A DNA stretch of 49,823 nucleotides from Rhizaria sp. SCN 62-66 (GCA_001724265.1 MEDY01000409.1:1-49823); one strand, 5' to 3'; positions 2 through 47,258 are shown, numbered from the stretch's first letter. Made by a program: numbers and translations. Notes: generated from the letters alone by a model not told the origin.

Positions 2-37
2 TCCGGCCCCACCATCGTCCACCGCAAGTGCTTCTAA
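2..37 (+). CDS. ACT: Actin, extreme 3' end (gene starts before the window)
   Basis: Bases 2-37 read TCC GGC CCC ACC ATC GTC CAC CGC AAG TGC TTC TAA = SGPTIVHRKCF*, matching the actin C-terminus (SGPSIVHRKCF). Stop is TAA. Confidence 0.9.
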   Translation, partial: SGPTIVHRKCF

Positions 38-759
38 GCACTTTTCGGTCACGCGCGATGAAGCCAGCTCTGACTGCTGCTGCTCTTTTGTTCTGTTCTC
101 TCCACTTTGTTCCACTCCGCTGGCGGTTAACGGCTCGTGAGGCCTGCCCCGGCTTGTAAAGATTTTCTCACACAACACTCAATACAATGTTGCTTTTTCA
201 ACTCTTGAGAAAACTCCAAATTTGTCCGTAATCATATTTTGTGATGCTTGTTCCGTTCGGAGCAACATAGACTCTCTCAGCAATACAAGTTAGAACCATG
301 CTAGAAAGAATTCGACTTAAATAGGATTATAAAGACTATAACTAGACGGCATAGTTTTCGTCATACAATTTCATAGACATTCATTTCGAATTGCGTTTGT
401 TAAGTACATAATGTACATTTAATGCCTACCGTCTTGCATGCTCCACAAGCTGACATCCGTTAGTGGTGAAATGAGGAGCAAACGTCAAATCTTAAGCTGA
501 AATGCGATCGGTAAATTAATTGTTAATAACAATAATGCAAACAGTTTCACAAACCCTAAAACACGTAATTTATTCTTTTACATTAATAATTCAAGTACAC
601 ATCATTTTATAGCTGAAAAGCTCATCCGAAGCTTCCAGTGCCGTCATACTCTCACCAGTCTTCACCTTATCATGCTTGTTTCTGATGCCTCTACTTTGGT
701 TTTAGGCCATCATTGCGATATAAGGCTGGAGGATTATTGGGCCATTGGACTGCTGTAAA

Positions 760-3135
760 ATGCCGTTTGATTTGCGCCCTTTACATTAGGCTCTGGCCGA
801 CCTGAGCTCTGCATCAACTGCCTGCACTGGCGTCATCGCTGTCCGAGACATGGTTTGTTCCGTCTCCCACGAGCATGCATTGTCAGACTGCATCGATGTT
901 TGCGCTCAACACGACGTTTACCGTATTCTTACTTGCTCATTAAGCTATTCCGCTGATACTTTGGCTCCTGAGCGTCTTCATTACGTCGCTGAGGTGCTCA
1001 CAGTCCTCTCGCGTTCTACTCTCGGCTGTGTTGAGCTCATCAAAAGTGGAGTCTGTGAGCAGTTATGCAGCATTCTCTGCGTGAAGAATCCACGCCCGCT
1101 TGTGGAGTGCGTGCTTGAAATCTTGGGCAATATGTTTGAGCACAACGCCTTCAGTCGCGATCCAGCCGTCGCACACGCCATACTGATGCGTCTGTCAGCG
1201 TTTGCAGTCGACCTCCACGAACAGCCTGACGATGCGCAAGTTGTTGTGCCAGCAACACACAAGCGACTTGCAAGGGTCGTAGCCGCCGCAGCCAACTCTA
1301 ACCCATCACTGCCTTTCACGGTTGCGGCGCCTCTTGCGCCGCTGCTGCAGCTCGCACTAGCGCGCTATTCCGGTTCACAACAGTTTGACACTGCGCTTAA
1401 CAGCACGGTGCTTGCGCTCGCCGGACTCTTCCGCCTTGATGGTGGCGTTAACGCTGAAGCTATGCTACTTAATTTTGCATGTGGTGACGCGTTTGACTGT
1501 GTGCTGGATTTGCTTTCGCGTACGAGCATCTCACGCACGCCACTGCTGTCGCTGCTCGAAAAGGCAGCATCGCTGGATGCTGAGAGTTGTGCACTTGTCT
1601 TCACCACAACGCGACTTGTTACTACGCGTGCCGCGGTAGCAAGCGGATGGAGTAGTCTTTCGCGTTTGGCCCAACTGCAACTAGTCCGTGTGTTTGTGCG
1701 GCTCGCCAGTGCTTCGCCAGTGCTTGCCGCTCGCGTCACTGCTTCCGGCATTGTCGTGGCGTTGCTGCCGCTTGCACCGCCACCTCATGGCCGGACTGTT
1801 GCCGCCGAGGTGCGCGCGACATGCCGGGCAACTGTGGAGCTCCTTGCAGCTGTGATGACTGCGGCTGCAGTCGGAGATGACGCAGTTGCCACAGCGCGCG
1901 TTCTTCTCGAATGCGGTGCGGTACAGTACTGCACCCGCTCGTTATTGATAGAGGCGCTATGGAGTGCGGAGACTGATACCACGTTGCGACTATTAACATT
2001 GCTGCAATTTTTTGTGACAGCAGGCGACACGACCCCTGATCCCGCTGTGCTAGCTGAAGGTGTTGTGCCTCAAAATCCATTTGTCGCCGCTTTTTTAGAT
2101 GCTCGTGGAAAGCACGTGCTGGATCTGTTGCGTTACGCAACGGGCATGAACGCGAGTAACAAAGCATTCCTTGCCCAGCTGTGCGCGGTGCTCGAGAACA
2201 TGCAGGTCATCGCCGTGAGGGACGCCTACGACGAGGTGACTGATCAGGCGGCAGGTGATGAATTGCACGCTTTTGTTTCGCAGTTTTCGGATTGGCAAAC
2301 TGCACTTGACGCTCACGTAGCACGTACCTTGGAGCAGGCTGGATATCCAAGGCGTGCAGCGCGCAGAATGCGAGCAGGTATGGCAGCACCAGTGACACTG
2401 TTTGCGACACCGTCGCGAGCTGCGCTGAGACTGTTACAGGCACGTGCCCGTGAGCTTGCTCTAGCGCATTCGCACGCATCGCGCTTTCTGGCTGTTGATG
2501 CCACAATGCAATTAGGTTTGTTTGATCATGAGAGGGGCGAGCGGTGTGAGTATACACTCACGGTGGCGCTCGATGACGCGCGACTACCCAGTCACGCAGC
2601 GCATTTCCGCGCTGCAGCGTGGGCGGGCGCGCTGGGGGACCACGCACATCAGTGCTTTCGGCATCAATCCAGTACGGCTGTAAAGTGTGATGTGCAACCA
2701 TATGTGGCGCTCTATCACGGGGATGCGTTGTGTTCTGACACACCACTTTTGCTGCCAGATGAAGACATTGTCTTTGGCGAGTACGTGTCACCTGGGCATG
2801 ATGTAACGTATCCCGGAGGCACGGTGCTTATCTGTCCTCGATCTGTTCTTCCACCAAGCCAGTTTTGCTTGCGCGACACGTTTGTGTTTGTGGTTCATGA
2901 GACGTGCGCAGCGAGCGCGCTCCCAGGCGCCGTGCCTGTTGGTCGCATTGTCCGGTGCATCCGCGCAGCAGCCGCGACGGTGTCACCTTCTCGTGCACAA
3001 TCAACTGACGGCACAGCAGTTTCTGAGCAGCTATTTAACACAATTGTTTTGAAGAGCTTCCAGGCGCAAAGCATGGGAGGTCAATGTGGGAATGCAGGAT
3101 GTACGAGCGCACTCAACATTGTTCCGTCTTTGTAA
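760..3135 (+). CDS. Importin-alpha-like armadillo-repeat protein with a degenerate cyclophilin-like C-terminal region (about 791 aa if TAG 787-789 is read as sense)
   Basis: The 761-aa ORF 850-3135 extends in frame to ATG 760 through one TAG (MPFDLRPLH*ALADLSS...). Leu/Ala helical repeats are present, and LLQFFVTAGD...NPFVAAFLDARGKHVLDLL resembles the importin-alpha C-terminal ARM repeat. Stop is TAA. The product call is tentative. Confidence 0.6.
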
Positions 3136-45500: not shown

Positions 45501-45745
45501 AGCAGCAGCAGCAGGGCGAGCATGAGAGTGCAAATAAAGGGTATTTCTTGCGGGCGCTGCATGCGGGCGAGGCGGCTGAGATGCAGCGCGCGCTGCTCGA
45601 GGCCGCACAGGCGCGCGTCGCCAAGGCTGGCGGCTCCGCCAAGCCTGCCGCGGGCGCCAAGGCCAGCAAGGTATTGGGGGCTGCGGCTGCGGCTGCGAGC
45701 GCGACGGCGAGTGCTGACAAGGACAAGAGCAAGGGCAAGAAGTGA
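42587..45745 (+). CDS. CARS2: Cysteinyl-tRNA synthetase, mitochondrial type, one in-frame TAG at 43253-43255, about 1052 aa
   Basis: [18 protein letters not shown] (HIGH) and TDIDDKI lie before the [42 protein letters not shown] and KMSKSLKN lie after it in the same frame. Arg/Ser-rich presequence-like N-terminus. Stop is TGA. Confidence 0.93.
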
Positions 45746-46214
45746 ACTGTGTTGTGTTGGCTCTGGGAAACGAAATAGCAACATGTGTATTTAATATTTA
45801 TTGATCTTGATTATAAAAAATTAGAGATAACCTGAAACACTGATAAAATTATTGCGACCCCTAAACCTGCAAATATATCACATCAAATGCGTCGGTCTCA
45901 ACATCGAGTGACTCGGTTGCTCACAGTCACTTGCGAGGCTGCGTGGGTTACAGCGAAACGAGAGCTGGACGGGAAACTTGGGGAGGTCAGAAAACTGGAA
46001 AATAGGCGATAGCTGCTGGTTAAACATGTGAAAGCGCATTTTATATGTGCCTGCTGGTCTAATTTTAAATTTGTTTTGATGCCGTAGCGCTGTCCTGCGT
46101 GTTTAATCGGGCCTTGCCGTAAACCTTCCTCCGCACTGACGCCTGCCTCTCACCCTTTCTTTGTTTACGTCCCTGGCGATTGATTCCTGTCTTGCTTTTC
46201 ATTTCCAGCCCGCA

Positions 46215-47258
46215 ATGAGTGACTCTACGGCCCCCACCGCGTCCACCGTGCCCGCCTCTGTGGTTGAGAAGACCACCAAGGACTACTACTTCGACTCGTA
46301 CTCGCACTTCGGCATCCACGAGGAGATGCTCAACGACACCGTCCGCACCAACACTTACATGGACTCGATCATGAGCAACCCACACCTGTTCAAGGACAAG
46401 ATCGTCCTCGACGTCGGCTGCGGCACGGGCATTCTGTGCATGTTCGCTGCCAAGGCTGGTGCGAAGAAGGTGATCGGCATCGAGTGTGCCGAGATCTACC
46501 ACAACGCCGTCGACATTGTCAAGGAGAACGGCTTCGAGGACAAGATCACGCTCATCAAGGGCAAGCTTGAGGACATCGAGCTGCCCGACGGCATCGAGAA
46601 GGTCGACATCATCATCTCCGAGTGGATGGGCTACTTCCTTCTCTACGAATCCATGCTCGACACTGTGCTCGTGGCCCGCGACCGCTGGCTCGCCAAGGAC
46701 GGTCTGCTCTTCCCCGACCGCGCCACACTCTACCTCACCGCGATTGAGGACGCGCAGTACCGCGAGGACAAGATCGACTTCTGGGACGACGTCTACGGCT
46801 TTAAGATGTCGTGCATCAAGGAGCTCGCTCTGCTCGAGCCCCTCGTCGACGTCGCCGACGCCAGCCAGGTCATGTCCTCCAAGGCCCGCATCCTCGACGT
46901 GGACATCTACACCGTCACCAAGGAGGACCTCGACTTTGCGTCCGACTTCGAGCTCAATGTCCAGCGCGCGGACAAGTGCCACGCGTTCCTGGCGTATTTC
47001 GACGTCGAGTTCACCAAGTGCCTCCGCAAGACGGGCTTCTCCACGGGCCCCCACGTGCAGCGCACGCACTGGAAGCAGGTCGTCTTCTACCTCGAGCAGC
47101 CTCTCACGTGCAAGCGTGGTGACGCCATCAAGGGCCATATCACCGTCAAGCGCAACGCGGGTAACCCGCGCGATCTCGACATCAGCATCTCCTCCGACCT
47201 TGCCGTCTCGGATGCCGCGCGCGCGCTCAAGCAGACCAAGAACTACCGCCTCCGGTAA
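46215..47258 (+). CDS. PRMT1: Protein arginine N-methyltransferase 1, about 347 aa
   Basis: [45 protein letters not shown] (double-E loop) and THWKQ loop. Stop is TAA. Confidence 0.95.

Follow-up and report, generated by a model that had tools for sequence, protein, structure and literature searches.

The question raised by the stretch of DNA considered here (MEDY01000409.1:1-49823, assembly GCA_001724265.1, listed as Rhizaria sp. SCN 62-66) is whether UAG, in the nuclear genes that it carries, is decoded as an amino acid, with UAA and UGA continuing to end translation; the whole stretch, 49.8 kilobases (kb) long, is called the window in what follows. A preliminary description of this DNA had drawn attention to six TAG codons in frame inside otherwise continuous genes, and TAG is indeed present at each of the six positions that it gave:

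43253-43255, + strand: in-frame TAG in the catalytic domain of CysRS, codon 223 counted from the ATG at 42587
8882-8884, - strand: TAG in frame within TERT, after the TEN motif and ahead of the RNA-binding domain
10766-10768, - strand: TAG in frame in the N-terminal portion of TERT
24695-24697, - strand: in-frame TAG, codon 4 of the mevalonate kinase MVK (M-Y-F-TAG-P-F-V-A-S-A-P-G-K)
787-789, + strand: TAG nine codons past the ATG at 760 of an unknown gene (running to 3135, stop TAA), either coding or in the 5' untranslated region
11736-11738, + strand: TAG in the first exon of an unknown gene with two exons (intron at 11843-12017; TGA stop at 12645)

UAG is probably a sense codon in the host, with UAA and UGA as its stops, and the amino acid for which it stands is most likely glutamate, as suggested by one informative alignment column. 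The weight for a sense UAG comes from four breaks in three of 14 otherwise intact and constrained genes, from the recurrence of these breaks in other assemblies, from the near-invariant glutamate site at which one of them falls, and from gene ends that are free of TAG.

In-frame stop codons, introns and gene ends

After removal of the introns, the gene models of the window comprise 12,656 codons, among which there are five in-frame TAG codons (a count that includes 787 and leaves out 11736), no TAA and no TGA. Four spliceosomal introns of the form GTAYGY...AG were found, each of which breaks or shifts the reading frame:

7265-7405, - strand: intron of TERT, 5' site GTATGC
11843-12017, + strand: intron of the unknown two-exon gene (g3), 5' site GTACGT
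from 20449 downwards, - strand: intron of the mitoribosomal S5 gene, 5' site GTACGT
36670-36805, + strand: intron of the V-ATPase subunit a gene, 5' site GTACGT

The three that could be mapped at both ends are 136-175 nucleotides long and pyrimidine-rich, with CAG at the 3' end; the guanine-plus-cytosine (GC) content, measured in two introns, lies between 0.40 and 0.52. The earlier statement that the genes contain neither frameshifts nor internal TAA or TGA codons is correct once these canonical introns, at least four in number, are taken out, and does not apply to the raw frames.

The window models have 14 gene ends, a small sample, nine of them TAA, five TGA and none TAG; under the assumption that TAG makes up one quarter of stops, its absence from 14 ends would have a probability of about 0.02. 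Fifteen ends (ten TAA, five TGA, no TAG) had been counted beforehand: the figures for TGA and TAG are unchanged by the present count, and the additional TAA is probably the one at 20404, which lies inside the mitoribosomal S5 intron and is not a gene end. Further in-frame TAGs, at 11267, 25058, 27718 and 27799, belong to AT-rich leaders upstream of the starts. The letter that follows the 14 real stops is A in seven cases, G in four and T in three, and C in none.

UAG is a rare codon, with four to six occurrences per about 12,700 codons; glutamate is written GAG 478 times and GAA 75 times in the window models, and UAG would amount to less than 1% of the codons for this residue. The genes that bear TAG (TERT, MVK and CysRS) have a GC content at third codon positions (GC3) of 0.52-0.76, and the strongly biased genes, at 0.84-0.89, are without it.

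The CysRS site and the identity of the amino acid

The gene in which the residue replaced by TAG can be compared with that of its homologues is the following:

42587-45745, + strand: coding sequence of CysRS, of the organellar type and with an N-terminal extension, stop TGA

The Pfam match to tRNA-synt_1e continues through the TAG at 43253, and the alignments to CysRS chains from the PDB are ungapped over it, the segment RVS-x-HVPD of the window standing opposite rvtDHi, rvsEYv and ratHHi. In the column aligned to the TAG, 106 of 119 homologues have Glu, 11 have Asp, and Gln and Lys occur once each; Leu and Trp are both absent (0 of 119), and Glu is present in each of the three closest environmental relatives. 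Among the checks proposed in the preliminary description was a tabulation of the residues aligned to in-frame TAGs in conserved proteins; it yields the residue counts just given, at what is the only informative column. Glutamate is the best guess for the amino acid because this column is Glu and because the step from GAG to TAG is a single change from the codon of the relatives, although a single site can bear only limited weight.

An intron at 43253 is excluded, since the ungapped CysRS alignment leaves no room for it; the local GC content is coding-like (0.53-0.82), and a GTACGT is found 220 nucleotides upstream. A stretch of 21 nucleotides of the form GT...AG, ending at the TAG, was considered separately as an intron and rejected, its removal being such as to delete seven aligned conserved residues.

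The TERT and MVK sites

The other three sites that lie firmly within coding sequence are distributed over two genes of the - strand:

4748-11236, - strand: TERT gene; exon 7406-11236 (ATG at 11234-11236), intron 7265-7405, exon 4748-7264, stop TAA
21650-24706, - strand: MVK coding sequence, stop TAA

Gene callers that apply the standard code cut TERT exactly at its two TAGs, into pieces of 156, 627 and 513 amino acids. The middle piece carries the end of the TEN domain (...LLLARVGADIV...YLQVCGPPL), recognized by hhalign against a profile of 17 TERT proteins with a probability of 95.3% and an E value of 2.4e-8, and the Telomerase_RBD domain is in the piece downstream of 8882. A single open reading frame of a relative (P0128, 40% identity) matches both flanks of 8882, the 88 amino acids upstream with an E value of 4e-5 and the downstream part with an E value of 1e-46; moreover, the stretch 700-1189 aligned by phmmer runs across query residue 784, which corresponds to this TAG. 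Because the TEN motif lies upstream, the RNA-binding domain downstream, and the P0128 frame covers both flanks, the TAG at 8882 is, as judged from these alignments, inside one predicted polypeptide. The 400 nucleotides upstream of it lack a GTAYGY 5' splice site, and the GC content nearby (0.55-0.78) is exon-like.

The TAG at 10766 is in coding sequence by its coding signal. The codon-usage score, computed with a model trained on genes of the same window (for reference, true frames score 0.45 +/- 0.23, wrong frames -0.07 +/- 0.17 and spacers -0.58 +/- 0.22), is +0.215 over the 155 codons upstream and +0.30 over the 82 codons that separate the TAG from the next ATG, the frame being the same on either side. 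The GC content nearby is again exon-like (0.67-0.85), and a GTACGT lies 367 nucleotides upstream. As to the protein itself, the TEN region (9700-10760, - strand) is lengthened, from the start of TEN to QVCGPPL, by an Ala-, Gly- and Thr-rich insertion of about 270 residues, and the whole TERT would reach about 2,100 residues.

In MVK the TAG is the fourth codon. If it is read as a residue, query residue 6 aligns with residue 6 of the human and rat enzymes, and the motif SAPGKxxLxGEH comes next; the following in-frame Met is about 130 residues downstream, past the indispensable SAPGK motif. A pyrimidine-rich stretch that resembles a 3' splice site precedes this TAG, and no motif resembling a 5' splice site occurs within 400 nucleotides upstream. 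A contig assembled from a poly(A) RNA run (X5) is colinear with 24114-24733, that is, up to 36 nucleotides past the MVK TAG, with no difference listed there, it being understood that three of its 12 differences are unlisted and that it is a contig and not a set of reads. The X5 contig nearest to the CysRS TAG covers 43333-43653 only, and the contig of a further run (X6) nearest to the MVK TAG ends at 24674.

Introns were tried as an explanation of all four sites (43253, 8882, 10766 and 24695) and rejected, given the lack of GTAYGY within 400 nucleotides at 8882 and 24695, the coding-like GC content and the ungapped CysRS alignment.

The sites at 787 and 11736

The remaining two TAGs may be either coding or upstream of the true start of their genes. 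The one at 787 is preceded by an ATG at a distance of nine codons and followed by another after 21; in the databases the gene matches nothing other than the protein of the window itself, as called from the later Met. It follows a pyrimidine-rich stretch that resembles a 3' splice site, and there is no GTAYGY within 400 nucleotides upstream. At 11736 an ATG is found two codons later, at 11742; the coding score over the 52 codons upstream is ambiguous, at 0.02.

The claim that all six TAGs are in frame within genes is thus borne out for four of them, 43253, 8882, 10766 and 24695. Similarly, the ranking by which both TERT sites and the CysRS site were strong and the three sites near start codons weaker is retained for TERT and CysRS and has to be revised for MVK, which is actually among the strong sites.

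Recurrence in other assemblies and strain variation

Contigs assembled from the runs of two further studies cover both 24695 and 43253 with no differences; they are records 1 and 8 of X3 and records 9 and 16 of X4. The runs date from 2017 and 2025, and the kind of X4 is not on record. Most of the joints and loose ends that the comparison with run contigs produces derive, at 90% likeness, from other GC-rich organisms. A metagenome contig of 1,614 nucleotides (L001) is an exact substring of the window that includes the CysRS TAG; it spans the same positions as record 8 of X3 and may not be independent of X3. TERT open reading frames ending at both TAGs recur on six contigs (JGI, Logan and ENA), among them the frame of 156 amino acids that ends at 10766; two entries of 627 amino acids are the same apart from the way in which their first GTG codon is rendered. 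Another base at the TAG sites had been named in the preliminary description as the mark of an assembly error, and TAG is unchanged at 24695 and 43253 in the X3 and X4 contigs. The TAGs are real and are not errors of assembly.

The differences between strains fall largely on third codon positions, with seven of the nine listed in MVK and all six in exon 1 of the following gene:

36553-40027, + strand: V-ATPase subunit a; exon 36553-36669, intron 36670-36805, exon 36806-40027, stop TGA and no TAG; used to place the organism

These differences reflect purifying selection on the genes concerned. A variant strain is seen in X4 and X5, with differences clustered at 24146-24254 and at 36600-36642; the third-position bias of the latter cluster helped to establish the frame of V-ATPase exon 1. 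In the THADA gene, at 29037-29098, the X4 and X5 contigs have 18 other letters in place of 60 nucleotides, both lengths being multiples of three; the change may be a variation in length that preserves the frame, in a part of the gene with low complexity, or, the flank being only 24 nucleotides long, it may come from another organism.

The host organism and a relative

The DNA of the window is nuclear and belongs to an uncultured protist, GC-rich and intron-poor, of wastewater and bioreactor metagenomes. Its GC content, per 2 kb, ranges from 0.48 to 0.76, and the eukaryotic nuclear genes recognized in it encode TERT (Telomerase_RBD and RVT_1), MVK, a GTPase of the GNL3/Grn1 type, mitoribosomal S5, THADA/Trm732, V-ATPase subunit a, Prp19, CysRS and PRMT1; several further genes of the window have no match in Pfam. 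The same DNA is found in runs tagged as bioreactor, wastewater or activated-sludge metagenomes, which come from several studies and span ten years.

That the host is probably a rhizarian is no more than a lead, provided by the named top matches of V-ATPase subunit a, which belong mostly to Rhizaria (Bigelowiella, Mataza, Lapot, Paulinella, Amorphochlora and Partenskyella). A quick tree of the same protein places the window outside Amoebozoa, Metazoa and Fungi, with no finer resolution.

A relative of the host is represented by a contig piece of 21.8 kb (L007, 1-21794; GC 0.50), which is not syntenic with the window and carries genes for CysRS, ESF1, ZPR1 and a phosphatase of the CDC14 type; its CysRS is about 46% identical to that of the window overall and 60% in the best segment. 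In three of the five genes of this contig a TAG stands 7-60 codons ahead of the next TAA or TGA, and in ZPR1 it comes nine residues past the complete last Pfam domain. TAG thus appears to terminate three of five genes in the relative, in keeping with a standard code, so that the change of code in the host would have come after the two organisms diverged.

Proposed decoding of UAG and rival explanations

If UAG is a sense codon in the host, ribosomes would insert an amino acid, likely glutamate, at UAG, and UAA and UGA would end translation. By extension from known cases, as given in the available parts of two reports (PMC5304391, PMC10553269), this would call for a tRNA with the anticodon CUA, probably derived from tRNA-Glu(CUC), and for an eRF1 that no longer recognises UAG. 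The window contains no eRF1 gene.

The preliminary description had held that UAG is decoded as an amino acid, and the glutamate column of CysRS, the flanks of the TERT site, codon 4 of MVK, the recurrence of the TAGs and the lack of TAG ends support it. A number of observations weigh on the other side. The evidence base is about 50 kb with four firm sites, and the amino acid is read from a single column. No tRNA gene was found in the window by ARAGORN, and Rfam gave no matches. No homology was detected for the part of TERT that precedes the TAG at 10766, with chance matches only in phmmer against the PDB and a probability of 0.1% in hhalign against the profile of 17 TERT proteins; a resemblance of this part to the N-terminus of human TEN found no confirmation by any tool and is not used. 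The RNA evidence is weak: it consists of contigs and not of reads, the X5 run may contain DNA, one of its contigs lying in the intergenic stretch 27323-27608, and three of the 12 differences of the contig across the MVK TAG are unlisted. Finally, random single-base nonsense changes would, with the codon usage of the window, give TAG in about 69% of cases, and only TAG would be obtained by chance with a probability of about 0.23 for four sites out of four and of about 0.11 for six out of six; the exclusive presence of TAG is for this reason weak evidence by itself, and the earlier argument that errors should also have created TAA or TGA is weak.

A C after the stop codon is a classic leaky context, and it is found after four of the six in-frame TAGs, the other two being followed by G, although it follows none of the 14 real stops; this would also fit a UAG that is still a weak stop, bypassed in a context-dependent manner by near-cognate tRNAs with no dedicated tRNA(CUA), as would the great rarity of in-frame TAG (four to six in about 12,700 codons). 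Such readthrough is nevertheless unlikely: TAG terminates none of the 14 genes, a following C or G is also expected from the composition of first codon positions (GC1 about 0.66-0.7), and essential single polypeptides, namely CysRS and a TERT with two TAGs, would have to be made by a low-yield bypass. Very unlikely is a standard code under which the TAGs are of mixed origin, some being nonsense alleles or marks of genes in decay and others belonging to introns that escaped detection or to non-coding sequence upstream. In its favour, 787 and 11736 may precede the true start, about 69% of random nonsense would be TAG, introns do occur in the host, and the TAGs of MVK and at 787 follow pyrimidine-rich stretches such as those of 3' splice sites. 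It would nonetheless require four breaks in three of 14 genes without a single frameshift, TAA or TGA, and it is at odds with the identity of the CysRS and MVK TAGs in the X3 and X4 contigs, with the TERT frames on six contigs and with the third-position bias of the strain differences; as to introns in particular, the CysRS alignment is ungapped, no GTAYGY occurs within 400 nucleotides upstream of the TAGs of MVK, at 787 and at 8882, and the GC content at the TERT sites is exon-like.

Least probable of all is a standard code whose premature stops are repaired in the mRNA, either by A-to-I editing (UAG to UGG, as occurs at premature stops in filamentous ascomycetes) or by U-to-C editing. The A-to-I editing of fungi prefers U at position -1, often in UAG, and repairs premature UAG codons in genes such as AMD1, as described in the available parts of the reports (PMC11156358, PMC5496914), and a preference of this kind would make TAG the favoured in-frame stop. 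Against it, Trp is found in none of 119 homologues at the CysRS column; TAG is at none of the 14 gene ends, whereas the fungi in question keep it as a normal stop; the X5 RNA contig has no listed difference at 24695-24697 (three of 12 differences being unlisted); and the V-ATPase tree does not place the host with fungi. A UAG read as sense, with UAA and UGA as stops, best accounts for the observations that could be made.

Other features of the window

Two features lie apart from the genes discussed so far. A small gene at 4066-4470 (+ strand), encoding 134 amino acids with a signal-peptide-like N-terminus and ending in TAA, falls below the listings of open reading frames of 150 amino acids; its coding signal is strong, with windows of 60 codons scoring 0.43-0.72 in its own frame. 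The final 2.5 kb (47300-49823) are AT-richer and have no coding signal in any frame, the best score over 60 codons being 0.14; neither an Rfam match nor a tRNA match was obtained in this part.

Comparison with known nuclear codes

The reassignment of UAG by itself in a nuclear code is already known from the rhizarian exLh, from Iotanema and from a few ciliates, and the host would be a further case. No report was found, in a literature coverage that is incomplete, of UAG as glutamate together with UAA and UGA as stops, or of such a code in a wastewater protist. That the host has a code table unreported for any nuclear genome (UAG as Glu, UAA and UGA as stops), in a probably rhizarian protist and at an early stage of reassignment, with UAG supplying less than 1% of the codons for Glu and found in weakly biased genes only, and with a relative (about 46% identical in CysRS) that still ends genes at UAG, is put forward tentatively, as a possibility somewhat short of an even chance.

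Should glutamate be confirmed, this would be a new code variant. A further independent case would be useful, being outside the ciliates, with very low usage of UAG, with a relative that appears to have the standard code and with a host that recurs in bioreactor and wastewater samples; if true, it would offer a tractable view of the early capture of a stop codon, including which genes are the first to accept the codon, how eRF1 and a suppressor tRNA evolve together, and whether UAG can become Glu with UAA still serving as a stop. A practical side exists as well, in that TERT, CysRS and MVK of the host are already present as fragments in public protein collections, having been cut by callers that apply the standard code.

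The codes with which the host can be compared are described here from the available parts of the cited reports. In Blastocrithidia nonstop all three stops are reassigned, UAR being glutamate and UGA tryptophan, with a dual role for UAA (PMC12153298); the likely reading of UAG as glutamate is shared with the host, whose genes, in contrast, have cis-spliced introns and do not form a single-strand polycistronic array. The oligohymenophorean ciliate PL0344 reads UAG as Glu and UAA as Lys, leaving UGA as the sole stop, and has suppressor tRNA genes with matching anticodons (PMC10553269), a mechanism of the kind proposed for the host. Here, too, UAG is split from UAA and read as Glu, as is likely for the host; UAA is nevertheless the commonest terminator of the host, at nine of 14 ends, and the genome architecture of PL0344 differs from that of the host.

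Among the codes in which UAG alone has changed, Iotanema spirale reads it as Gln (PMC5304391), and the phyllopharyngean ciliates read it as Leu (uncultivated forms) or as Gln (Hartmannula and Trochilia), with UAA as the preferred stop (PMC11687900). With these the host has in common a reassignment restricted to UAG and a UAA that is still a stop; it differs from them in lineage and in the likely residue, Gln being present in just one of 119 homologues at the CysRS column. In the rhizarian exLh, a member of the Sainouroidea, UAG is Leu and the stops are UAA (56) and UGA (15); 384 in-frame UAGs were counted in 71 genes, at conserved Leu positions, and UAG is scarcer in highly expressed genes (PMC5304391). 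The host departs from exLh in its four to six UAGs in 14 genes and in a CysRS column with Leu in none and Glu in 106 of 119 homologues. It resembles exLh in that UAG alone is sense, in a UAA to UGA ratio that is like the 9:5 found here, in being possibly a rhizarian itself, and in the limitation of TAG to weakly biased genes, which echoes the depletion of UAG in the highly expressed genes of exLh.

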